Source: an uncultured Gammaproteobacteria bacterium (GTDB lineage Bacteria; Patescibacteriota; Patescibacteriia; Magasanikbacterales; GWA2-37-8). Taken from it: a stretch of DNA of 64,000 nucleotides. The notes under the pieces were generated by a model. The model was not told the DNA's origin, searched no databases, and worked only from the letters and a program-made list of their open reading frames with translations. The DNA lies in NCBI GenBank assembly GCA_964482695.1, contig CAYZYP010000001.1, positions 4,143-68,142 of the forward strand, read 5' to 3'. A program made the position numbers and the translations under genes. Below are positions 2,835 through 43,018 of the stretch, one piece after another (position 1 is the first letter of the stretch; each line of letters opens with the position of its first letter).

Positions 2835-4652
2835 ATGATTAAAAAACTATTCAAACTTCACTCCAAATTCCAACCAGCTGGCGACCAACCGCAAGCGATA
2901 GAAAAACTAATTAAAGGTATAGAAAAAGGGGATAGATACCAAACTTTAAAAGGCGTTACCGGTTCTGGAAAAACCTTTACCATGGCTAATGTGATAGCCA
3001 ATTTTGATATGCCGATACTTGTGATGGCGCCAAACAAAGCTTTGGCCGCGCAGTTGTATCGTGAGTATAAAAATTTTTTTCCGGAAAATTCTGTTAATTA
3101 TTTTGTTTCCTATTATGATTATTATCAACCAGAAGCGTATCTCCCTACCAGCGACACTTATATAGACAAAGAAGCGATGATTAACGAAGAAATAGATCGT
3201 TTGCGTCACGAGGCAACTAGCGCCTTGGCCACTAGAAAAGATGTGATAGTGGTAGCATCTGTTTCTTGTATCTATAATCTTGGTTTGCCAGAGAGTTATA
3301 CCGCGTCGTCTTTGCATTTGTGTCTTGGCCAATCAATTACGCGTGGTGATTTAACAAGGCAATTGGTAAAAATTCAATTTGAGCGTACTCCGGGGGCTTT
3401 GAGTCGCGGTAAATTTAGAGTGCGCGGTGATGACTTTGAAATTATGCCGGCAACAGGAGAAGTAATTTATCGGATAAGTTTGAGAGAACAGCAGGTGAAA
3501 GAAATATCCATTGTTAATTCTTTAACCAGAACAGTTAAAGAACAACTTAAAGAAATAATTATTTTTCCGGTAAAACATTTTGTTTCTTCTCAACCACAAA
3601 TTACGCGCGCGATAAAAGATATTAAAAGCGAGCTAAAAGAACGTTTATTATATTTTAAAAAGAAAAAGTTGTATATAGAAGAACAACGTTTAGAAAGGCG
3701 CGCTAGATATGACATGGAGATACTCAAAACATTAGGGTATTGCCATGGTATAGAAAATTATTCGCGCCATTTAACCGGCAAGTTAGCTGGTGAACCGCCA
3801 GAAACATTATTGGCCTATTTTCCTAAAAAAGAATTTCTTACCATCATTGACGAGTCGCACGTTGGTCTGCCGCAAGTGCGTGGTATGTATGAAGGTGATA
3901 AAAGCCGTAAAAATGTTTTGGTAGAATATGGTTGGCGTTTGCCATCGGCTTTAGACAATCGACCGCTTAAATTTAGCGAGTTTGAAGAACGAATTGGCCA
4001 GGTAATTTGTACGACAGCCACACCAGGGATTTTTGAATTAAAAAATTCAGTACAAATTGTAGAGCAAATTATTCGACCAACTGGCTTGATAGATCCACCG
4101 ATAGAAATTAAACCTGTTTTTGATAAAAAGAAAAATCAGGGTCAGATAGAAGATTTAATGAAAGAATTGGAAAAAATTGTTAAAAATAATGAAAGGGCGA
4201 TAGTTAATGTCTTAACCAAAAAAATGGCCGAGGACTTAAATGAATTTTTATTGAAGAAAAATTTTAAAGTTAATTACCTGCATTCAGACGTTAAAACATT
4301 ACAGCGCACGGAAATTATTACCAATTTTCGTAGAGGCAAGTTTAATGTTTTAATTGGCGTAAATTTATTACGCGAAGGTTTGGATTTACCAGAGGTAACA
4401 TTAGTAGCTATTTTAGACGCTGACAGAGAGGGGTTTTTACGTAGTGAATCCGCGCTTATTCAAACTATGGGTCGCACGGCGCGCAATGTTCGTGGCAAAG
4501 TTATTTTATACGCCGATACTATCACCGGCTCCATTAAACGCGCTATGAGTGAGGTTGAAATTCGGCGAAAAAAACAAATGGCTTATAACAAAAAACACGG
4601 CATTACTCCGCGCAGTATAGAAAAGGGGATAGAAGATACGTTTGAAAAATAG
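2835..4652 (+). CDS. uvrB: Excinuclease ABC subunit B (UvrB), short form lacking C-terminal UVR domain
   Basis: GVTGSGKTFTMANVI Walker A, helicase motifs, beta-hairpin region YYDYYQPEAY; 605 aa vs ~670 typical. Confidence 0.9.
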   Translation: MIKKLFKLHSKFQPAGDQPQAIEKLIKGIEKGDRYQTLKGVTGSGKTFTMANVIANFDMPILVMAPNKALAAQLYREYKNFFPENSVNYFVSYYDYYQPEAYLPTSDTYIDKEAMINEEIDRLRHEATSALATRKDVIVVASVSCIYNLGLPESYTASSLHLCLGQSITRGDLTRQLVKIQFERTPGALSRGKFRVRGDDFEIMPATGEVIYRISLREQQVKEISIVNSLTRTVKEQLKEIIIFPVKHFVSSQPQITRAIKDIKSELKERLLYFKKKKLYIEEQRLERRARYDMEILKTLGYCHGIENYSRHLTGKLAGEPPETLLAYFPKKEFLTIIDESHVGLPQVRGMYEGDKSRKNVLVEYGWRLPSALDNRPLKFSEFEERIGQVICTTATPGIFELKNSVQIVEQIIRPTGLIDPPIEIKPVFDKKKNQGQIEDLMKELEKIVKNNERAIVNVLTKKMAEDLNEFLLKKNFKVNYLHSDVKTLQRTEIITNFRRGKFNVLIGVNLLREGLDLPEVTLVAILDADREGFLRSESALIQTMGRTARNVRGKVILYADTITGSIKRAMSEVEIRRKKQMAYNKKHGITPRSIEKGIEDTFEK

Positions 4653-4656
4653 TTTA

Positions 4657-4807
4657 TATTTACATCTTTAATATATTTATTTTTAGACACATAAATTTTT
4701 TCCAGCGAAAAAATTTATTTAAGTGCTCGGCAAAAATCCCGACTTCGTCAGGACCATGCATTTTTGCCTCGCAAACTCTAAAAATAAATATATTAAAGAT
4801 GTAAATA
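4657..4807. mobile_element. MITE-like element copy A: 31-bp perfect terminal inverted repeats (tatttacatctttaatatatttatttttaga) flanking ~89-bp core
   Basis: Left TIR 4657-4687 is exact reverse complement of 4777-4807; core is reverse-complement homolog of 16211-16275. Confidence 0.7.
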
Positions 4808-5221
4808 CTATCTAACTTTTGTTAAATCACCATTAATAATAATTGGTTTAACGGCTTCAATTTCGGTTTTGCAATATGGCATATCGGGAATAGAATTCCA
4901 CATAAATATTTTTTGGTTTAAAACATGGGCAAAGCCAATTTCCATTAAAGTATTACCGCCAACATAGTTTTTAATGTCATTTTTATCAAAGTTTAGAACT
5001 AATACCGCGTCCGCACCTTGCATTTTTTTCCAAAATTCCCGAATAGCGTCTTGATTATTTTTTTGCCGCAGTTTAATTTCTTCAATTTCCGCGTCGTTTT
5101 TACCGATCATCGGTTTGTGCAGGTCGGAAATAAAAGCATCGTGGCCTAGTTTATCTAGTTCATTTTTTACTTCTATCATTTTGTCAGTAAATTGCATCGA
5201 GCCGATTATGCCGATTTTCAT
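4808..5221 (-). CDS. Nucleoside 2-deoxyribosyltransferase / Rcl(DNPH1)-like Rossmann-fold protein
   Basis: 137 aa; MKIGIIGS N-terminus and GADAVLVLNF...GGNTLMEIGFAHVLNQKIFMW resemble the NDT/Rcl family motif (D..G...E.G.A...K). Confidence 0.45.
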   Translation of the reverse strand: MKIGIIGSMQFTDKMIEVKNELDKLGHDAFISDLHKPMIGKNDAEIEEIKLRQKNNQDAIREFWKKMQGADAVLVLNFDKNDIKNYVGGNTLMEIGFAHVLNQKIFMWNSIPDMPYCKTEIEAVKPIIINGDLTKVR

Positions 5222-5234
5222 ATAAATAAGAATT

Positions 5235-5450
5235 TTATTTTAATTCAAAAGTATAAACGACATTAATTATTTGATTTTCGTTTTTTACATCGCAAGAAAC
5301 TTGTTTATTGTTTAATGTGTATCGAAGTAATTTTCCATTAATTTTCACAGTCATAATCTCTTTTTCGGAAAGCGGTATGCCACCTTGCCAATCATATTCT
5401 CCTTTAAAATCTCCATTAATAAAGATTGCTTTGGTATTTTTTTTGATCAT
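5235..5450 (-). CDS. Hypothetical small protein (71 aa), translationally coupled to flanking genes
   Basis: ORF start 2 nt downstream of upstream stop codon; no recognisable motif. Confidence 0.35.
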   Translation of the reverse strand: MIKKNTKAIFINGDFKGEYDWQGGIPLSEKEIMTVKINGKLLRYTLNNKQVSCDVKNENQIINVVYTFELK

Positions 5451-5455
5451 AAATA

Positions 5456-5797
5456 TTAAGGATAAAATTTTAACTCGCAGTTTCCTCCTACCAGTGAATA
5501 TAATATGCTTCGGACAGTCGCGTCTGTTTCTTTGGTTCTTTCGGGTTGTGAGGTTAGTCGATTTTCTCCTACAAGGGGAGGCTTAATCTCAAGACGTTCT
5601 CCTCTATTCATTACCGACCAGCCTTTTCCTAATTTTTCTGTAAATGTAGATTCCCAATCCGCGGGTATACTTGTTGGGTCGGAATACGGACCCAATGGGA
5701 GGTTTTTAATCACATATTCATTCTCATGTCCTCCCAATCCAAATTCAATAGTGATATGTGGTTTTTGTAATTGTTCTTTTCCATTTTCTGTTAACAT
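5456..5797 (-). CDS. Hypothetical protein (113 aa), first gene of minus-strand 3-gene cassette; locally GC-richer
   Basis: ORF only; no family recognised. Confidence 0.35.
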   Translation of the reverse strand: MLTENGKEQLQKPHITIEFGLGGHENEYVIKNLPLGPYSDPTSIPADWESTFTEKLGKGWSVMNRGERLEIKPPLVGENRLTSQPERTKETDATVRSILYSLVGGNCELKFYP

Positions 5798-5886
5798 ATT
5801 GGTTTTTTGAAGATTAATTAAGAAATAATATTATATTTTCGTTTATTATACCACTCCCATACTCAATAAATCAATAAATTTAGGGT

Positions 5887-5915
5887 TTGACTACCACCCC
5901 AACTAATGCTAAATT
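5887..5915 (+). promoter_or_regulatory. Candidate sigma70 promoter for uvrA (TTGACT-17-TAAATT)
   Basis: ttgact accaccccaactaatgc taaatt, 17-nt spacer, ~35 nt upstream of uvrA ORF. Confidence 0.35.
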
Positions 5916-5948
5916 ACCCACATACCCCCCTAGACCGTCAAAAAGCGG

Positions 5949-8465
5949 TTGATTTCATGTTTTATGGAAGACAAAATCATCATCAAAGGCGCCAGAGTGC
6001 ATAATTTAAAAAATATCTCTCTGGAAATACCAAAGAATAAAATAACGGTAATTACCGGCGTTTCTGGTAGTGGTAAATCCAGTCTAGCTTTTGATACTAT
6101 TTTTGCCGAAGGGCAGAGAAGATATATAGAATCATTATCTCCGTATGCCAGGCAATTTTTGGGTCAAATGGAAAGGGCTGATGTTGATGAAATAAATGGT
6201 TTATCACCAGCCATTGCCATAGACCAAAAAGCCCTTAGCCACAACCCACGTTCCACTGTTGGCACCCTAACCGAAATTTACGATTATTTACGTGTTTTGT
6301 ACGCCCGCTTAGGCGAGGTATATTGCCCGCAGTGTGATTTAAAAATAGAAAAATTAACAACCGACGAGATGTTGGATATAGTTATTGGCCAAGCCGAAGA
6401 ATTAGACGAAAAAATAGTCACCATATTTTCACCAGTCGTGCGCGAGCGCAAAGGGGAGTATTACCAATTGTTATATGATTTCTTAAATCTGGGATTTGAT
6501 CAAGCGCGCGTTGATGGGGCGTTAGTTTCTTTGCATGAAAGAATAAACTTAGCTCGTTACAAAAAACATAATATTGAAATAATGATTGATAGAGTAATGA
6601 TAAGTGATGTCAGCCGGTTAAACGAAGCCATAGAAAGTGCTTTACATCATAGCAAAGGATTGGTATTGGCAGTGTTTAAAGAAAAATCAAAAGAACCAAT
6701 AGAACGGTTATTATCCAGTAACTGGTCGTGCTCTAACGATGGTTTTTCTTTTCCCGAAATAGAGCCAAGACTTTTTTCTTTTAATAGTCCGGCTGGCGCT
6801 TGCCCGGATTGTCATGGTTTAGGGAAAGTAGAAATGTTTTCCAAAGAAATTTGTCCGGTTTGCCAAGGCAAGCGTTTAAAGCCAGAAGCCCTATCGGTAA
6901 AAATTAAGCATAAAAATATTTTTGAGGTTGCTTCCATGACCATAGAAGACATGTATACATTTTTTATTCAATACGAAATCAAAATGACTGAACGCCAAAA
7001 ATTAATAGCCCATCACGCCACTCGCGAAATTACCGACCGTTTAAAATTTTTACTGGAAGTTGGTTTGGACTATATTACCCTTTCTCGCGAATCTCATACT
7101 TTGTCTGGTGGTGAAGCCCAACGCATCAGATTATCTTCACAAATAGGTTCGCGTTTATCAAACACGTTATATGTTTTAGATGAACCTACCATTGGTTTAC
7201 ATGAACGCGACACCGATCGCTTGATAAAAACTTTAAAATCTTTACGCGATGCCAATAATACAGTTATCGTAGTTGAGCATGATGAACGGACGATTAAAGA
7301 ATCAGATTATTTGGTTGACCTTGGCCCCTTGGCCGGCGAACATGGGGGAGAGGTGGTGTACGTAGGGACAGGTCTAGACCTGTCCCTACAAGGCGATAAA
7401 TCTCGATCTCTTACCATCCAATACCTCACCAACCAACGCCAAGTAGAGGTGCCTAAAAAACGTCGCTGGAAAGAGACCGAAGAATTGTCTATTATCGGCG
7501 CGCGAATAAATAATCTTAAAAACATCAATGTTAAAATACCTTTACGCAAGTTTGTTTGTGTTTCTGGTGTTTCCGGCAGTGGTAAATCTTCGCTACTTTA
7601 TGATACTCTTTACGAAAATATTAATAGAATAAAAAGTAGATACAAAACATTGGAAGGTGCCAGTAAAATTACCGGTACTGAATATTTTGAAAAGGCAGTT
7701 ATTGTTGATCAGTCGCCAATTGGCCGCACCCCGCGTTCTAACCCAGCGACCTATACTGGCATTTTTACCCCTATTCGCGAATTTTTTGCTTCTTTAGAAG
7801 ATTCGCGTACGCGCGGCTATACTATTTCGCGCTTTTCTTTTAATGTCGCTGGCGGGCGTTGTGAAGCTTGCGAAGGCGCGGGAGCAAATTTAATAGAAAT
7901 GCATTTTTTGCCTCCCGTACTAGTGCCGTGCGAAGTTTGTCATGGCAAAAGATTTAGCCGTGAAACATTACAAGTTAAACATAAAAAGAAAAATATTGCC
8001 GATGTTTTAAAAATGACAGTTAGCGAAGCCGTTAAGTTTTTTGAACATATTTATTCTATCACTGACAAGTTAAAAGTTTTGCAAGAAGTTGGTTTGGGTT
8101 ATTTACAACTTGGCCAATCAGCCACTACTTTGTCTGGCGGCGAAGCTCAACGTATTAAGCTGGCGCGCGAATTAACTCAGCCATTAGGTCGTCGAACACT
8201 TTATTTACTCGACGAACCAACCGTTGGCTTGCACTACTTTGATATTGAAATGTTGCTGATGGTAATAAATAAATTAGTAGATAAAGGCAATTCCGTTATC
8301 ATGATAGAACACAATCTGCATATTTTAAAGTCTTGCGACTATATTATTGATCTAGGGCCCGAAGGCGGTGAAAAAGGCGGGCGAGTAGTGGCCAAGGGCA
8401 CGCCCGAAGAAGTAGGCGATAATCCTAATTCTTATACAGGGATGTATTTAAGAGAGATGTTGTAA
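5949..8465 (+). CDS. uvrA: Excinuclease ABC subunit A (UvrA), compact form (838 aa); true start probably MEDKIIIKG at ~5964
   Basis: Two ABC ATPase modules (GVSGSGKSSLAFDT..., GVSGSGKSSLLYDT...), zinc-finger cysteines, LSGGEAQRI signatures; insertion domain region replaced by short linker. Confidence 0.9.
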   Translation: MISCFMEDKIIIKGARVHNLKNISLEIPKNKITVITGVSGSGKSSLAFDTIFAEGQRRYIESLSPYARQFLGQMERADVDEINGLSPAIAIDQKALSHNPRSTVGTLTEIYDYLRVLYARLGEVYCPQCDLKIEKLTTDEMLDIVIGQAEELDEKIVTIFSPVVRERKGEYYQLLYDFLNLGFDQARVDGALVSLHERINLARYKKHNIEIMIDRVMISDVSRLNEAIESALHHSKGLVLAVFKEKSKEPIERLLSSNWSCSNDGFSFPEIEPRLFSFNSPAGACPDCHGLGKVEMFSKEICPVCQGKRLKPEALSVKIKHKNIFEVASMTIEDMYTFFIQYEIKMTERQKLIAHHATREITDRLKFLLEVGLDYITLSRESHTLSGGEAQRIRLSSQIGSRLSNTLYVLDEPTIGLHERDTDRLIKTLKSLRDANNTVIVVEHDERTIKESDYLVDLGPLAGEHGGEVVYVGTGLDLSLQGDKSRSLTIQYLTNQRQVEVPKKRRWKETEELSIIGARINNLKNINVKIPLRKFVCVSGVSGSGKSSLLYDTLYENINRIKSRYKTLEGASKITGTEYFEKAVIVDQSPIGRTPRSNPATYTGIFTPIREFFASLEDSRTRGYTISRFSFNVAGGRCEACEGAGANLIEMHFLPPVLVPCEVCHGKRFSRETLQVKHKKKNIADVLKMTVSEAVKFFEHIYSITDKLKVLQEVGLGYLQLGQSATTLSGGEAQRIKLARELTQPLGRRTLYLLDEPTVGLHYFDIEMLLMVINKLVDKGNSVIMIEHNLHILKSCDYIIDLGPEGGEKGGRVVAKGTPEEVGDNPNSYTGMYLREML
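7362..7389. repeat. 28-bp perfect palindrome gtagggacaggtctagacctgtccctac inside uvrA coding sequence, in a GC-rich patch
   Basis: Read directly; replaces the conserved EGTPEE segment at the end of UvrA ABC module I (translated VGTGLDLSLQ). Confidence 0.6.
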
Positions 8466-8467
8466 TT

Positions 8468-8725
8468 CTATTGATAAATGTCATGAGTACCAATTGAATG
8501 GAAGATAATTATATCATTCTGTCCAAATTCAAAAATAATACGGTATTTGTAACCAATAGAGAATGACCAAAAATTTTTAAGTCGGCCGCTAAGTTTGTGA
8601 GTTTTTAGTGATGGTGCGTGGCAATTTTCACGAAAAATTTGTTCGTTTTCTTCAGCGGTATCTTTAATATTATTAGGCAATTTTTTATACTCCCGAGCAA
8701 ATTTGGGAGTATAGACGATTTTCAT
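8468..8725 (-). CDS. Type II toxin, RelE/ParE superfamily
   Basis: 85 aa; MKIVYTPKFAREYKKL...HKLSGRLKNFWSFSIGYKYRIIFEF..DIIIFHSIGTH pattern typical of RelE/ParE toxins; 3 nt after the antitoxin gene. Confidence 0.7.
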   Translation of the reverse strand: MKIVYTPKFAREYKKLPNNIKDTAEENEQIFRENCHAPSLKTHKLSGRLKNFWSFSIGYKYRIIFEFGQNDIIIFHSIGTHDIYQ

Positions 8726-8727
8726 AA

Positions 8728-8943
8728 TTAACGTAAATCTTTAAGGGATTGAAGTGGTTTTGCTTTGCCAGCGGCAAATTCTTTTCTGCTTTTTTCTAGT
8801 TCATAAATAATTTTATTTTCCATTCGTTCACGTAAAATATGGCGAAAGAATTCGCTTACCGAAGCAAAACCACCAGTTTTAACCTCGTTCTTTATTTCTC
8901 TAACCATGATATTAGGTAAAGAGATATTTACAATATTGCGCAT
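8728..8943 (-). CDS. Ribbon-helix-helix (CopG/ParD-like) antitoxin
   Basis: 71 aa; ISLPNIMVREIKNEVKTGGFASVSEFFRHILRE matches RHH antitoxin N-terminal DNA-binding fold; immediately upstream of RelE-like gene. Confidence 0.65.
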   Translation of the reverse strand: MRNIVNISLPNIMVREIKNEVKTGGFASVSEFFRHILRERMENKIIYELEKSRKEFAAGKAKPLQSLKDLR

Positions 8944-10670: not shown

Positions 10671-12638
10671 TCATTGGCACAAAGGAAAAGTACAAGTTAC
10701 TTTTGTGCCTTTGTTTATTTCACTTTCTATCTTTATATCCCCATCATGATTTTTTATGATTCTTTCACAGATTGCCAAACCAAGGCCGGTGCCCTTTACG
10801 CTATTGTTGGTGTTATTATCAGCTCGATAGAAGCGTTTAAATAAATTTTGTAATTCTATCTTGGCTATGCCAATTCCACTGTCATTTATTACAAGTAAAA
10901 CATTATTTTTATCTCTTTTTAAATTAATAATTATTTTTCTTTCATTGGCAGTATATTTAAAAGCATTGCTTACCAAATTGGTTATTAATTCTTCTAGCTG
11001 TTTTGCTTGGCCAAACAAATAAATGTTGGGTTCTATATTAGAAATAATGTTTATTTTATTTTGTTTAGCTATAACTTGGAAGTATTCTATCAAATCAGTT
11101 AGTAAATAACTAAAATTTATTTTTTGTTTATTATTAACATCAAATTTAAAATCTAACCTAGCTAATTTTAACAAATCAGAAATAAATTTCGAAATATTAT
11201 CTATTGATTTAGAGCATATTTTAAAAGTGTCATTTTTATTGTAACTATTTTCCAGTTGGCACAATTCGCCTTTGATTATTGTTAAAGGAGTTTGTAAGGC
11301 ATGAGAAATATCTAACATCATTTGTGATTGTTTTTCTTGTAAATTTGTTATTTCTTTAGTTCTATTTTTTACCTTTTCTTCCAAATTTTTGGAATAATTT
11401 TTTATTTGTTCATAAAGCCGCGCTTTTTCCAAAGCCATGGTTACTTGGTAAGCAAACGTTTCTAATAATTTTAAATCTTGTTTGCTATAATAGTCACCAG
11501 AAAGTTTTGGTCCTAATAATAAAAAACCAATATTTTTATTTTCTAATAAAAGAGGCACACTGGCGGTTTTCTCGTGCCTGTCATCTATTGAATGTTGGCT
11601 ATAAGTTGTATTTAAAATATAACTAGCTGTACTGGCATGGAGAATTTGTTTTAATTTATCGTTAGTTTCATCAATAATATCTTGTTGATTAATATTTTTG
11701 TTAGCGATAAAACTTAATTCACGCAAAGCCTCGCTATAATTGTATTTATCTTTGAAAAATATTTTATCAGTAAAACGACGAAAGTACAGTTCTATTATTG
11801 GTACGGTAAAAATACCAAAAATAGTAGTAATAATAGCGCTGATAAAATAATTAAAGTGGCTATTGTTTTTTAATAAAACAAGCGAAGTAAATAATATTGA
11901 TAAATAAAATATTATAATAATGCTTAAAATAGCAATATAAATTAAACCGCGTTGGATGATTATTTTGATGTCTAGCAATTTATGTTTTAAGATGACGTAG
12001 CTAGTGAAGATAGCCAAGAAGATAGAAAATTGCGGTCCAAGACTGTAGAATCGAATCTCTCCAAGTAAAGGTAAAATTACGGTAAAAATAATCGCTCCAA
12101 ATAATACCAAAAAAACTCCCATTTTTATGTAGATGATTTGTCTTTTTTGTAGCCACGATGCTTTTGGATAATAGAATAATAAGCGTGTGCCGCCATAAAT
12201 CAAACCGCCCAAAAGAAAAAGTAAAATAGGATAACTAACGATGCCGAGGGTGATTTGCGTGGGCGCATTAGGCGGAAAAAATGTTTCTATTGTATATAAT
12301 TTGGTGAAACTACAAATAGAAAAAATAATACTGGGCGTTAAAAAAAGTATCTTTTTTATTTTACTTAGTCGGTTGTTGATAAAAAATTCTATAAAACATA
12401 AATGATAACTAACAAAAAAGACACCGCCTGTAACAGCCAAACCGCTATAAATTCGCAAAGCCAGATCGCTACTCGCGACATCAGCCATGGCATTACTGCC
12501 AACCCAAACCGTGATGAATAAAATATATAGTCCAAGGTATTTAGCGAGAATGTTGTGTTTCTTTTGTATAAAAACGAAAGCCGCGACCCCCAGGTTTATT
12601 AAAGTGAGAATCGCGGCGGAAATAGTGAAAATAAACAT
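10671..12638 (-). CDS. Sensor histidine kinase with large multi-TM N-terminal sensor region; no response regulator gene adjacent in this window
   Basis: H-box ISHALQTPLT, HATPase_c motifs NLVSNAFKYT, DSGIGI, GTGLGLAI; ~9 N-terminal TM helices. Confidence 0.8.
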   Translation of the reverse strand: MFIFTISAAILTLINLGVAAFVFIQKKHNILAKYLGLYILFITVWVGSNAMADVASSDLALRIYSGLAVTGGVFFVSYHLCFIEFFINNRLSKIKKILFLTPSIIFSICSFTKLYTIETFFPPNAPTQITLGIVSYPILLFLLGGLIYGGTRLLFYYPKASWLQKRQIIYIKMGVFLVLFGAIIFTVILPLLGEIRFYSLGPQFSIFLAIFTSYVILKHKLLDIKIIIQRGLIYIAILSIIIIFYLSILFTSLVLLKNNSHFNYFISAIITTIFGIFTVPIIELYFRRFTDKIFFKDKYNYSEALRELSFIANKNINQQDIIDETNDKLKQILHASTASYILNTTYSQHSIDDRHEKTASVPLLLENKNIGFLLLGPKLSGDYYSKQDLKLLETFAYQVTMALEKARLYEQIKNYSKNLEEKVKNRTKEITNLQEKQSQMMLDISHALQTPLTIIKGELCQLENSYNKNDTFKICSKSIDNISKFISDLLKLARLDFKFDVNNKQKINFSYLLTDLIEYFQVIAKQNKINIISNIEPNIYLFGQAKQLEELITNLVSNAFKYTANERKIIINLKRDKNNVLLVINDSGIGIAKIELQNLFKRFYRADNNTNNSVKGTGLGLAICERIIKNHDGDIKIESEINKGTKVTCTFPLCQ

Positions 12639-16145: not shown

Positions 16146-16182
16146 AAAGAGTGTTGAAGTATAAATACCCTTAGTATGTATA

Positions 16183-16327
16183 GTAATCCTTTAATTAAAT
16201 TATTTTTAGAGTTTGCGAGGCAAAAATGCATGGTCCCGACTAAGTTGGGATTTTTGCCGAGCATTTAAGTCAATTTTGCCGCTGGGCGAAATTGACGTGT
16301 CTAAAAATAATTAAACTAAAGGATTAC
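16183..16327. mobile_element. MITE-like element copy B (inverted orientation relative to copy A), TIRs (g)taatcctttaattaaattatttttaga / tctaaaaataattaaactaaaggattac
   Basis: 16211-16275 is reverse complement (few mismatches) of 4721-4790; imperfect ~28-bp TIRs read directly. Confidence 0.65.
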
Positions 16328-16329
16328 GA

Positions 16330-17313
16330 TTAATGCAAGTTTTTTAGAAAGCTCTCTAATTCTAATGGTAGTTCTATGGTAAATTTTTTCTTTTCATTTT
16401 TTAAATTCACAAAACCTAATTGACAACAATGCAAAAATAGCCGCCCGCATTTTTCGTCCCACTTTCGTTTTTGTTTTTTTTGAAAATATAACGGATCGCC
16501 AACTATAGGGTGATTATACGCCAAAAAATGCGTGCGGATTTGGTGCATACGGCCGGTATAGATTTTAACGCGCAAAAGAGTAAAATTCACAAAACGTTTT
16601 TCAACCAAAAATTCTGTTTTAGCTTCACGGCCATCATCCGACGTCAGTCCATCTTTAAGGTAAGGAATAGCCGCCATCCGGTCGCTATTTTTTGTTCTTT
16701 TAATTGGAAAATTAATTTCATCCCAATCTTTATGTATTTTACCGTGAACCAAGACTAAATATTCTTTTTCTATTTCTCTTTTTTTGAATTGTTCTTTTAA
16801 ACACCCAAACATTTTTTGTGTTCGTGCTACTACCAAAAGACCAGACGCTTCCTTGTCTAGACGGTGAACAATGCCAGGGCGTGTTTCCGGATCATCGCCA
16901 ACTTTTTTAATTTCCGGATATTTCTTTGCCAAAACAGAAGCCACACTCATCGATTCGCGAGCCATGGTTGGGTGAGTAAGCAAGCCAGATGGTTTGTTTA
17001 TTACCAGATAATCGTCGGTTTCGGCGACAATGTTTAATTTAGAATATTTAGCAGAGTTGGCAGCCGGCTTGGGCTGTTTAATTGTTTTAGGTAATTTAGG
17101 TTTTTTGATTATCTTAGATAGTATAATTTTGTCGCCATCTTTTATTAAATTACCGGCTTTTTTAGGTTGTTTATCATTAATTGTTATTTGTTTATTATCT
17201 ATCATTTTTCGTACTTGCGAGCGAGAGACGCCTAATTTTTTTGTCAAAAAAATATCCAGCCGTTGATTGGCAAGTGGCGCGGAAACTGTAAATGTGGTCG
17301 TAAGAGAAGTCAT
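16330..17313 (-). CDS. RluA-family 23S rRNA pseudouridine synthase (RluD-like) with N-terminal S4 domain; start taken at MTSLTTTF
   Basis: S4 motif VSRSQVRKMIDNKQITIN, catalytic HRLDKEASGLLVVA. Confidence 0.75.
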   Translation of the reverse strand: MTSLTTTFTVSAPLANQRLDIFLTKKLGVSRSQVRKMIDNKQITINDKQPKKAGNLIKDGDKIILSKIIKKPKLPKTIKQPKPAANSAKYSKLNIVAETDDYLVINKPSGLLTHPTMARESMSVASVLAKKYPEIKKVGDDPETRPGIVHRLDKEASGLLVVARTQKMFGCLKEQFKKREIEKEYLVLVHGKIHKDWDEINFPIKRTKNSDRMAAIPYLKDGLTSDDGREAKTEFLVEKRFVNFTLLRVKIYTGRMHQIRTHFLAYNHPIVGDPLYFQKKQKRKWDEKCGRLFLHCCQLGFVNLKNEKKKFTIELPLELESFLKNLH

Positions 17314-17319
17314 ATATAG

Positions 17320-17393
17320 TGGGCATGGATGGACTCGAACCATCGACATCCACCTTATAAGGGTGGCGCTCTAACCAACTGAGCTACATGCCC
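17320..17393 (-). tRNA. tRNA-Ile with anticodon UAU (reads AUA)
   Basis: Manual fold of reverse complement: acceptor GGGCATG/CATGCCC, D-stem GCTC/GAGC, anticodon stem CCACC/GGTGG with loop CTTATAA, T-arm GATGG-TTCGAGT-CCATC, discriminator A; no encoded CCA. Confidence 0.7.
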
Positions 17394-19590: not shown

Positions 19591-20859
19591 ATGTTAACCT
19601 TGGAATTTGATTACAATTTGCCAAAAGAATTAATTGCCCAAACACCAGCTAGCCCGCGTGATTCTTCGCGTTTGATGGTGGTTGATAGGAATAATCACGA
19701 TATTCAGCATAAACAGTTTAAGGATATTATTCAATATTTATCCAAAGGTGATCTGTTAGTTTGGAATAACACCAAAGTTTTTAAGGCGCGATTACAAGGT
19801 CGGGTTTTATTGGACGAGGAGACGGACAATATTTCTGACAGGCGAGAAAAAAAACTGGGTTTAACGGACAGGATTTTAAACATGCCGGCAATGGAGATTT
19901 TTTTGGTTCGGCCGATGGAAAATTTTGGCGTTTGGAAAGTGTTGGCTAAACCTGGTAGAAAATTACGCTTGGGGATGAAAATAGTTTTTGCCGAGGATTT
20001 TATTTGCGAAGTGATGATTAAAGAAAGCGACGGGACCATTTTGGTTCAATTCAGCGAAGACGACATGAGCGTACGGGCCAAGGCGAATAAGTATGGAAGT
20101 GTGCCTGTGCCGCCATACATTGAATTTGATAGTCGCTCTGTCATCCCGAGGAGGAGGAACGACGACGAGGGATCTCTGTCTGGACAATTGAGACAGAGAT
20201 CCCTCACTTCGTTCGGGATGACAAAAGAGTTGGCAGAACAATATCAAACCGTCTATGCTAAACACGAGGGTTCGGTGGCGGCACCTACCGCTGGCTTTCA
20301 TTTTACACCAGAATTGATAGAACAGTTAAAACAAAAAGGCGTTGAATTCGCCGAAGTAACTTTGCATGTTGGTTTGGGAACTTTTTTACCGGTTAAGACT
20401 GAAAAAGTGGAGGATCATAAAATGCATAGTGAGTGGATAGAATTAACAGCCGCTAACGCGGATAAAATAAATACAGCCAAAGCAGAAGGCAGGCGGGTTA
20501 TAGCAGTTGGTACTACAACAGTGAGGACATTGGAGGGCGTGAATTTATTTTGTCATCCCCGCGAAAGCGGGGATCCAGCCCAAAAGTTACAGACACTGGA
20601 TTCCCGCCTGCGCGGGGATGACAGTCGCGTTTATTACTTAAAACCATATACCGGCGACATTAACATTTTTATTACTCCCGGCTTCAAATTCCAGATTATA
20701 GACGCGCTAGTAACTAATTTTCACTTGCCAAAATCAACTTTAATTATGCTGGTTAGCGCGTTTGTTGGCGACACCAATTTTGTCTCGGATTGTTATCAAA
20801 AAGCGGTAGAAGCTAAATATCGCTTTTATAGTTTTGGAGATGCGATGTTGATTAAATAA
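19591..20859 (+). CDS. queA: S-adenosylmethionine:tRNA ribosyltransferase-isomerase (QueA) carrying two in-frame palindromic insertions
   Basis: MLTLEFDYNLPKELIAQTPASPRDSSRLMVV...; 422 aa vs ~340 typical. Confidence 0.85.
   Translation: MLTLEFDYNLPKELIAQTPASPRDSSRLMVVDRNNHDIQHKQFKDIIQYLSKGDLLVWNNTKVFKARLQGRVLLDEETDNISDRREKKLGLTDRILNMPAMEIFLVRPMENFGVWKVLAKPGRKLRLGMKIVFAEDFICEVMIKESDGTILVQFSEDDMSVRAKANKYGSVPVPPYIEFDSRSVIPRRRNDDEGSLSGQLRQRSLTSFGMTKELAEQYQTVYAKHEGSVAAPTAGFHFTPELIEQLKQKGVEFAEVTLHVGLGTFLPVKTEKVEDHKMHSEWIELTAANADKINTAKAEGRRVIAVGTTTVRTLEGVNLFCHPRESGDPAQKLQTLDSRLRGDDSRVYYLKPYTGDINIFITPGFKFQIIDALVTNFHLPKSTLIMLVSAFVGDTNFVSDCYQKAVEAKYRFYSFGDAMLIK
20139..20223. repeat. In-frame palindromic element 1 inside queA (outer tgtcatcccga/tcgggatgaca, inner gagggatctctgtct/agacagagatccctc)
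   Basis: Nested inverted repeats read directly; GC-rich vs flanking; translated as SVIPRRRNDDEGSLSGQLRQRSLTSFGMT. Confidence 0.7.
20551..20623. repeat. In-frame palindromic element 2 inside queA (perfect 13-bp termini tgtcatccccgcg / cgcggggatgaca)
   Basis: Termini are exact reverse complements; same terminal motif as element 1; translated LFCHPRESGDPAQKLQTLDSRLRGDD. Confidence 0.7.
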
Positions 20860-37159: not shown

Positions 37160-37267
37160 TAGTCTAAGTTATATACTGATTTTTTGTTGTCAATGGAAAC
37201 CCTCGGGAGGGCGACTGAGCGGAGCGAAGGAGTTTTGACAACAGAAAATCAGTATATAACTTAGACT
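37160..37267. repeat. Long hairpin/MITE-like: 34-bp inverted repeat (tagtctaagttatatactgattttttgttgtcaa) with 1 mismatch around a 41-nt GC-rich core
   Basis: Arms 37160-37193 and 37235-37267 reverse complementary; lies between rpmE stop and prfA start. Confidence 0.6.
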
Positions 37268-42908: not shown

Positions 42909-42982
42909 TACGCCTTGCGCCAGCGGAAAATACTTTTGAATCGCGGGCTATCGCCCGCGCTCAAAAAGTATTTTCCGCTGGC
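42909..42982. repeat. Palindromic intergenic repeat, family P1 copy 2
   Basis: Matches 841-919 over ~70 bp with nested inverted repeats. Confidence 0.7.
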
Positions 42983-43018
42983 GTGGCGCGTGAATAATAT
43001 TAGTTTGTTAATAAAGTT

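Follow-up and report, generated by a model that had tools for sequence, protein, structure and literature searches.

Three apparently unrelated small genes, one for a predicted nucleotide N-glycosidase, and a structured repeat between uvrB and uvrA of a CPR bacterium

Introduction

Several families of related α/β proteins act on the N-glycosidic bond of nucleosides or nucleotides. Nucleoside 2'-deoxyribosyltransferases (NDTs; PF05014) swap bases between deoxynucleosides for salvage, whereas DNPH1 (Rcl) and the CMP N-glycosidase BcmB hydrolyze nucleotides. In mammals, the pyrophosphatase DCTPP1 makes a nucleoside monophosphate (NMP) and the N-glycosidase DNPH1 acts on it. LOG and PpnN of the SLOG group, which are built on a related Rossmann-like scaffold, cleave NMPs to free base and ribose 5-phosphate. 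In this study, we analyzed three small genes, g1, g2 and g3, that lie between uvrB and uvrA in a 64,000-nt stretch of DNA (hereafter, the window; positions 4,143 to 68,142 of contig CAYZYP010000001.1, assembly GCA_964482695.1) from a candidate-phyla-radiation (CPR) bacterium, together with an inverted repeat beside them. A preliminary description of this DNA presented the genes as an acquired cassette, bounded by a miniature inverted-repeat transposable element (MITE), and as a candidate for an undescribed small system. Our analysis favors, with moderate confidence in the combination, a different reading: three unrelated genes, of which g3 encodes a nucleotide N-glycosidase of the NDT/DNPH1 superfamily, and a repeat that is a genome-specific structured element.

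Results and discussion

Predicted fold and active site of g3

The AlphaFold2 model of g3 is an α/β structure (mean predicted local distance difference test score, pLDDT, 90.9), in which a helical insert at residues 33–56 is modelled with lower confidence. When the model was compared with the PDB by Foldseek, ranks 1–18 were all NDTs, BcmB, DNPH1 or the unannotated conserved protein 7m5h (probability 0.98–1.0). In its α/β fold and its size (~130–140 aa), g3 is like DNPH1/Rcl and BcmB/MilB. PF05014 was matched by 50 of 87 diverse members of the g3 family at E ≤ 0.01 (best E = 7.6e-8), and a tandem paralogue passes the gathering score of that family (29.6 bits). The fold model, the Foldseek matches and the PF05014 matches of the relatives agree with the preliminary description, which had likened the last gene of the cassette to NDT/Rcl proteins. 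These results suggest that g3 very probably belongs to the NDT/DNPH1-type fold.

Glu94 stands in the motif YxGGNTLMEIGFAH; none of 38 close homologues lacks this residue, and its conservation across 87 diverse ones is at least 90%. The catalytic residues of DNPH1 are Y24, D80 and E104, with E104 as the nucleophile (PMC10603095). Glu94 lies in the E-x-G motif after the fourth strand and was aligned on E104 by hhalign, in a match that is itself weak (E = 0.013, probability 3%) and in that respect weighs against the assignment. The invariant Glu94 would thus be the nucleophile of g3. The N-terminal G-S loop of g3, in which S8 is conserved, resembles the FCGS loop of DNPH1.

In contrast, the Tyr of the DNPH1 triad is replaced in g3: with G7-S8 set on G27-S28 of DNPH1, by motif alignment only, Y24 falls on the invariant Gly4. 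The position of the Asp is uncertain. The same weak hhalign match places D80 beside F63 of g3, and the invariant D58, which starts the same helix, is a candidate for the general-acid Asp, which is D72 in NDTs. The canonical Tyr-Asp-Glu triad therefore appears incomplete in g3, and its chemistry could differ. For this reason, we treat g3 as representing a separate family of the superfamily, neither an NDT nor a DNPH1 orthologue. Unlike DNPH1 and BcmB, g3 has the helical insert and many family-specific invariant residues, among them H27, H35, K41, Q53, K54, D58, R61, W64, Y86, H99, Y116, C117 and E120.

Distribution and conservation of the g3 family

Homologues were counted in a collection of 5.8 billion proteins, and 61 loci from other genomes, including 35 that encode g3 relatives from other species, were compared with the window. 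The collection contained more than 2,790 homologues of g3, one of g1 and 55 of g2. Clustered at 90%, the g3 family numbers more than 2,700 sequences; when 1.84 billion cluster representatives were searched exhaustively, 962 clusters at the 50% identity level proved to be g3-related. Of the best 120 homologues, those from the CPR belong to Woesebacteria, Moranbacteria, Gribaldobacteria, Nealsonbacteria, Saccharibacteria, Peregrinibacteria and other groups, and those from the DPANN archaea to Woesearchaeota, Pacearchaeota, Aenigmatarchaeota, Micrarchaeaceae and Nanoarchaeia. The family is without a Pfam or NCBIfam model, and its named members are all called "hypothetical protein" in the sources. 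Full-text literature searches found no published description of the family in CPR bacteria or DPANN archaea.

The best 120 homologues are 76–83% identical to g3 over the full 137 aa. In a 38-sequence sample, 53 columns were invariant, including the motifs GSMQF, NxDK and YxGGNTLMEIGFAH. Comparison with 16 homologues gave a proportion of synonymous differences (pS) of 0.73–1.0, which is saturated, at a nonsynonymous distance (dN) of 0.10–0.34; thus, family members remain 65–83% identical although their synonymous sites are saturated. The g3 family is under extreme purifying selection. Other proteins common to the window and the g3 loci were only 36–40% identical (two open reading frames (ORFs), four comparisons), against 76–83% for g3. 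The conservation of g3 is therefore about twice that of the only two other genes shared in the compared loci, and it extends over two domains of life.

Recent horizontal acquisition of g3 was considered and ruled out, since the synonymous differences are saturated at low dN; the GC content of g3 is unremarkable. The neighbors of g3 homologues elsewhere are core genes: in a Moranbacteria genome, one homologue is flanked by murA and mreB, seven loci have the homologue downstream of secA, and others have it beside ruvX or recO.

Homologues with 55–75% identity were also found on four contigs (L024, L035, L038 and L039) binned as Methanosarcinales, Gammaproteobacteria or Pseudobdellovibrionaceae. 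The Gammaproteobacteria-binned contigs, which are short (6–10 kb), could be CPR or DPANN DNA placed in the wrong bin, and the 333-kb Pseudobdellovibrionaceae contig may mean a genuine spread of the family beyond CPR and DPANN.

Predicted function of g3

Indirect indications of function come from the partners of g3 relatives and from the conserved S8. An NTP (nucleoside triphosphate) pyrophosphatase domain was present in 14 of 20 multidomain relatives searched against Pfam: PF01931, the ITPase/XTPase type, in nine, NUDIX in two, MazG in two and Maf in one. These fusion partners span four unrelated folds. In a metagenome-assembled genome of Saccharibacteria, a g3 homologue and a Ham1 (ITPase) gene overlap at the end of the former, and NUDIX genes lie at most 5 kb from g3 relatives in 5 of the 35 loci. 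PF01931, NUDIX, MazG, Maf and Ham1 enzymes turn mostly non-canonical NTPs into NMPs. Since the fused and neighboring enzymes yield NMPs, the g3-type domain is most simply read as cleaving the N-glycosidic bond of an NMP, like DNPH1, BcmB/MilB, LOG and PpnN. Tandem NDT-like paralogues were found in two loci: in L023 the paralogue lies directly downstream of the g3 homologue, and in L031 a single gene stands between the two. The L024 locus has a 148-aa gene that overlaps the g3 homologue, looks NDT-like by eye and has no Pfam match.

On this evidence, g3 would split nucleoside monophosphates, perhaps non-canonical ones, by hydrolysis of their N-glycosidic bond, with free base and (deoxy)ribose 5-phosphate as products. 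Its substrate would be what house-cleaning NTP pyrophosphatases produce, and it would serve the sanitation of the nucleotide pool, the salvage of base and pentose, or both, in organisms that scavenge nucleotides. The logic matches that of DCTPP1 and DNPH1 in mammals. We regard an NMP/dNMP N-glycosidase activity for g3 as about an even prospect. The preliminary description had also offered a nucleoside-salvage role for the three genes together; this idea is near to the role that the evidence favors for g3, and it applies to g3 only, not to the trio.

Several points weigh against this assignment. The fusions and the pyrophosphatase neighbors occur in distant relatives (35–45% identity) and not in the core clade of 137-aa proteins, whose members nearly always stand alone in variable contexts. 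The evidence points to no particular substrate for g3. Its TM-scores to NDT-family structures are moderate (0.43–0.62), and it falls below the gathering score of PF05014 (18.1 vs 28.8 bits, E = 0.003). Identity to DNPH1, BcmB and MilB is only 13–18% and sequence searches miss these enzymes: searches of PDB sequences with the single g3 sequence, with the 87-sequence profile and with a paralogue returned nothing significant.

The strongest alternative is that g3 is a genuine NDT, which exchanges bases between deoxynucleosides instead of hydrolyzing nucleotides. PF05014 is the best Pfam family of g3, and its top three Foldseek matches (6evs, 2a0k and 7o62) are NDTs. CPR and DPANN organisms are not known to make nucleotides de novo and rely on scavenged nucleosides, which would suit such an enzyme. 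However, the PF01931, NUDIX, MazG, Maf and Ham1 partners make nucleoside monophosphates and not nucleosides, so that the associations of the family suggest a nucleotide substrate. The N-terminal Tyr, which is the catalytic Y7 in NDTs, is absent from g3 in the motif alignment. Moreover, the wider family has xCGS as its N-terminal motif, which is unlike the YxAG of NDTs and like FCGSIRGG, which we take to be the phosphate-binding loop of DNPH1, its numbering agreeing with PMC10603095. We therefore consider an NDT activity unlikely.

Slightly less likely still is that the glycosidase assignment is wrong altogether: on an NDT/SLOG-like scaffold, g3 would then bind nucleotides, act in regulation or catalyze another chemistry. 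The incomplete triad, with Gly at the Tyr position, would fit this view, as would the many additional invariant residues and the helical insert, and conservation as extreme as that of g3 is unusual in a simple hydrolase. Against this, the GT/NT-x-x-E-x-G motif with its invariant Glu is a hallmark of the glycosidases and transferases of the superfamily, and the consistent tie to NMP-producing enzymes suggests catalysis on NMPs. As for the SLOG branch, LOG and PpnN carry a GGxGTxxE-type motif where g3 has GGNTLME, and a weak match to SLOG cluster-4 was seen in one g3 relative. However, g3 has no Pfam LOG match at E ≤ 1, and its structural matches favor the NDT branch.

If g3 is a nucleotide N-glycosidase, a wider role can be proposed tentatively: the family may be an undescribed and near-invariant N-glycosidase family, a hallmark of ultra-small episymbionts, which CPR and DPANN share presumably by an old inter-domain transfer, which has stayed at ~80% identity and which is central to sanitizing or recycling scavenged nucleotides. 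We think this extension rather doubtful as a whole. A dedicated, constrained N-glycosidase tied to house-cleaning pyrophosphatases would nevertheless be a concrete, testable part of the scavenging metabolism of these organisms. Under the N-glycosidase reading, the family would also be useful as a marker family.

The inverted repeat at the uvrB stop codon

The inverted repeat between uvrB and g3 (el1) has arms at 4645–4687 and 4777–4819, which match over 43 nt at 88%, with a perfect 29-nt core (4659–4687 and 4777–4805) and 89 nt between the arms. The element measures 147–175 nt overall and is non-coding, and its arms are far beyond chance. A 186-nt stretch that contains it (4640–4825) folds at −58.3 kcal/mol (z = −9.8). 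The outer arm overlaps the stop codon of uvrB, and the perfect core starts 6 nt after that codon. On the other side, the far arm overlaps the stop codon of g3, and the perfect arm ends 2 nt before it.

A second copy (el2) was found ~11 kb from el1, in the opposite orientation and with an interior of likewise 89 nt. Over 37 nt and over 17 nt the two copies are identical; the 37-nt core reads GGACCATGCATTTTTGCCTCGCAAACTCTAAAAATAA. Their outer arms are only ~65% alike, and the first inner hairpin also differs; each copy nevertheless stays self-complementary, and 9 of 53 predicted pairs show compensatory changes. Compensatory pairs within divergent arms argue that selection acts on the structure and not on a terminus to which a transposase would bind in both copies. 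Each copy begins, in the sense orientation of the gene upstream (uvrB for el1, an RluD-like gene for el2), at that gene's stop codon or no more than 3 nt beyond it. As el1 starts at the uvrB stop codon, it is better called a 3' appendage of uvrB than a cassette boundary. We propose that el1 would be one copy of a genome-specific, structured intergenic repeat of ~150 nt.

The searches for relatives of this element were negative. No Rfam family matches el1 or el2, and a covariance-model search that covered a further ~9 kb of this genome and ~200 kb from other CPR loci turned up no additional copy. One metagenome scan with a 24-nt query from the arm, the variable part of the element, matched only twice, by chance, within AT-rich coding sequence, and a query with the conserved core gave no match among viral contigs. 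An intrinsic terminator is not supported either: the terminator scan found no terminator-like site within el1, that is, no GC-rich stem with a U-tract, the outer stem being AT-rich and 29 bp long.

The preliminary description took this repeat for a MITE that bounds the cassette. The inverted repeat is real, and its perfect arm does end 2 nt short of the g3 stop codon; however, the element stands on one side of the cassette only. A transposase-mobilized MITE marking the insertion boundary would account for the long terminal inverted arms of a non-coding element of this length, for a second copy with a 37-nt identical core 11 kb away, and for the TA dinucleotides that flank the perfect arms of el1. 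In contrast, it would not lead one to expect termini that diverge between copies with compensatory pairs, a start at the upstream sense gene's stop codon in both copies, the lack of a matching target-site duplication flanking el2, or the lack of a third copy in the DNA searched. We therefore judge a mobilized MITE to be improbable.

Like REP/BIME elements (repetitive extragenic palindromes and bacterial interspersed mosaic elements), ERIC (enterobacterial repetitive intergenic consensus) sequences and Correia-type MITEs, el1 and el2 are short, non-coding, repeated and self-complementary, and they lie in intergenic DNA near gene 3' ends. They differ from these in that they match no Rfam family, were seen in only two copies, in the 64 kb of the window, and have arms that covary instead of being conserved; no transposase or target-site duplication was identified. 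Candidate identities for the element are a MITE-like relic, a REP-like element and a functional 3' RNA structure; it may be an undescribed structured RNA motif of gene 3' ends and not the remnant of a transposon. As a lead on RNA or DNA elements in CPR genomes, this structured repeat at gene 3' ends is a minor one.

Other palindromes were observed in the window. A separate family of GC-rich palindromic repeats has at least two copies, at 850–919 and 42918–42983, whose arms share CGCCAGCGGAAAA(G/T)ACTTTT. Two more long intergenic hairpins, at 37161–37267 and 20551–20623, have arms of 33 nt and 28 nt. This genome seems rich in intergenic palindromes.

Relationship among g1, g2 and g3

The distributions of the homologues of g1, g2 and g3 are independent of one another. 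Neither g1, g2, uvrA nor uvrB was found by tblastn within 5 kb of the g3 relatives in any of the 35 loci, and the other two genes of the trio were found neither in seven g2-homologue loci nor in the single g1-homologue locus. When positions 4600–6000 were compared with the 61 loci by blastn, the DNA homology of each of the three genes did not reach beyond its ORF; none of the loci matched two of the genes. These results make it very likely that g1, g2 and g3 are not a conserved trio, contrary to the preliminary description, which had seen in them a candidate undescribed system. The region holds independent small genes, three in number, that stand together by chance and are not a functional module. 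The proposed three-gene system thus fails, and nothing new follows from the trio itself.

No sign of a role in defence was found either. The PADLOC database gave no match for any of the three proteins at E ≤ 1. PHROGs gave none for g1 and g2 and only non-significant ones for g3 (E 0.02–0.04), and no relatives of g3 or g2 occurred among 2.9 million viral contigs (IMG/VR). Given these negative results, the independent distributions and the lack of co-occurrence, the readings of the trio as a system and as a phage-defence or toxin module, the latter also raised in the preliminary description, are unsupported. A novel small module of this kind, in which an NDT/SLOG-like effector with two partners forms a mobile cassette in a repair locus, would suit the close-set and co-oriented genes with one promoter-like site upstream, the ParE/RHH toxin-antitoxin pair in the next spacer of the uvr cluster, the patchy and accessory-like distribution of g1 and g2, and the weak TIR-domain Foldseek matches low in the list for g3, but it is highly improbable and already largely refuted by the missing co-occurrence, since the genes are together nowhere else among the loci examined, the defence and viral collections hold no significant match or family member, and g3 is core-like, with extreme purifying selection, saturated synonymous sites and housekeeping neighbors elsewhere.

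We suggest instead that the uvrB–uvrA spacer would hold three unrelated small genes, probably on one transcript and with no shared function, and that g1 and g2, both real genes, would have arrived in the spacer independently. The gene models, the fold of g3, the distributions, the lack of co-occurrence, the domain fusions, the selection pattern and the two covarying repeat copies are shown by the data, and the substrate and reaction of g3 and the co-transcription are inferred.

Properties of g1 and g2

The only homologue of g1 is 88% identical at the amino acid level. At the nucleotide level, identity to the locus of this homologue (L055) is 89% over a stretch that begins 10 nt upstream of its ATG and ends with the stop codon, and the flanks are unrelated. 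The dN/dS ratio (nonsynonymous to synonymous substitution rate) of 0.22 indicates that g1 is a real coding gene under purifying selection. It has no Pfam, NCBIfam, PHROG or PADLOC match. As judged from these alignments, g1 is a lineage-specific near-orphan that moved as a single-gene unit.

The homologues of g2 are 45–80% identical and occur in CPR bacteria and DPANN archaea. They share conserved motifs, namely GGIPLS and an N-terminal MIKKNTKAIF. The AlphaFold2 model of g2 is all-β with five strands (pLDDT 95); it has no significant PDB match, and BFVD gave only weak matches to uncharacterized phage proteins. The neighbors of g2 differ in every lineage examined and include NADAR and rubrerythrin genes, SbcCD and a DinG-like helicase. 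Genes for DNA repair proteins or helicases (uvrA, SbcCD, DinG-like) stand beside g2 in 3 of ~7 distinct contexts, too few to build on. In one archaeon (L056, 5001–8606), the g2 homologue lies just upstream of a tRNA gene and a 23S rRNA gene. In another archaeal contig (L059, 885–1996), it is near ribosomal protein genes, and a gene for a LAGLIDADG homing endonuclease overlaps its start by 4 nt. The LAGLIDADG overlap and the rRNA neighbor might hint that selfish elements carry g2 along.

Organization and composition of the locus

The features analyzed are listed in Table 1. The three minus-strand ORFs between uvrB and uvrA are as previously described, and they are identical in the public gene calls of two independent assemblies. 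Exact-protein look-ups of g3 and uvrB returned two contigs only, from one groundwater site, with gene order unchanged.

Table 1. Positions of the genes, repeats and comparison loci (window coordinates, except for loci of other genomes, which have their own)
Feature	Position	Strand	Remarks
g1	5456-5797	minus	113 aa; near-orphan; first gene of the apparent operon
g2	5235-5450	minus	71 aa; all-β; small CPR and DPANN family
g3	4808-5221	minus	137 aa; NDT/DNPH1-fold; predicted nucleotide N-glycosidase
uvrB (context)	2835-4652	plus	UvrB Pfam domains
uvrA (context)	5949-8465	plus	public gene call: ATG at 5964, 833 aa
Promoter-like site	5845-5874	minus	TTGATT-18-TATAAT, extended -10 TG; consensus match only
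el1	4645-4819	plus	~150-nt palindromic repeat; outer stem and two internal hairpins
el2	16180-16330	minus	second copy; starts at the stop codon of the RluD-like pseudouridine synthase gene; upstream of gmk; covariance model 197 bits
L025	3580-4541		g3-homologue locus with Ham1 or paralogue neighbor
L023	5001-5820		g3-homologue locus with Ham1 or paralogue neighbor
L031	5001-6462		g3-homologue locus with Ham1 or paralogue neighbor
L024	3826-4682		g3-homologue locus with overlapping 148-aa gene, NDT-like by eye

The spacing of the genes is looser than the 2–5 nt given previously: g1 and g2 are separated by 5 nt, and g2 and g3 by 13 nt. The genes had also been said to differ in frame, which holds for g2, while g1 and g3 share a reading frame. 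The promoter-like site matches the consensus at 10 of 12 positions, is the top-scoring site in 4500–6100 and lies 48 nt upstream of g1. A terminator scan found no minus-strand terminator-like site between the three genes. Co-transcription of g1, g2 and g3 from one promoter is plausible and probable because the spacers are short, there is one promoter-like site and none of the gene boundaries carries a terminator-like site. Weighing against it, this part of our interpretation is only inferred, from the spacing and the single consensus promoter.

The GC content of the window is 0.347, and its ORFs have a mean of 0.352 (standard deviation 0.040). The GC content of g1 (0.392) is indeed higher than that of g2 (0.269) and g3 (0.341), as the preliminary description had pointed out. 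However, it is just one standard deviation above the ORF mean and on par with that of uvrA (0.397), so that g1 is not a compositional outlier; g2 is a low outlier. GC content gives no foreign mark to the three-gene cassette.

The spacer between uvrA and uvrC carries, at 8468–8943 on the minus strand, genes for a ParE/RelE-like toxin (85 aa; PF05016, E = 7e-7) and a ribbon-helix-helix (RHH) antitoxin (71 aa; PF01402). Both spacers of the uvrB–uvrA–uvrC cluster therefore carry small accessory genes on the opposite strand. The view of the cassette as acquired accessory DNA is borne out to this extent, that the uvr spacers do hold such genes; it fails for g3, which is not recent, given its saturated synonymous sites and the core-gene neighbors of its homologues.

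Other features of the window

Directly downstream of uvrC, at ~10800–12000, the GC content is very low (0.21–0.30), and AT-rich inverted repeats lie at 11113–11537. The sole tRNA gene of the window (17319–17393, minus strand) encodes a tRNA-Ile with the anticodon UAU. Bacteria normally read AUA via a lysidine-modified CAU tRNA, and a UAU anticodon is unusual.

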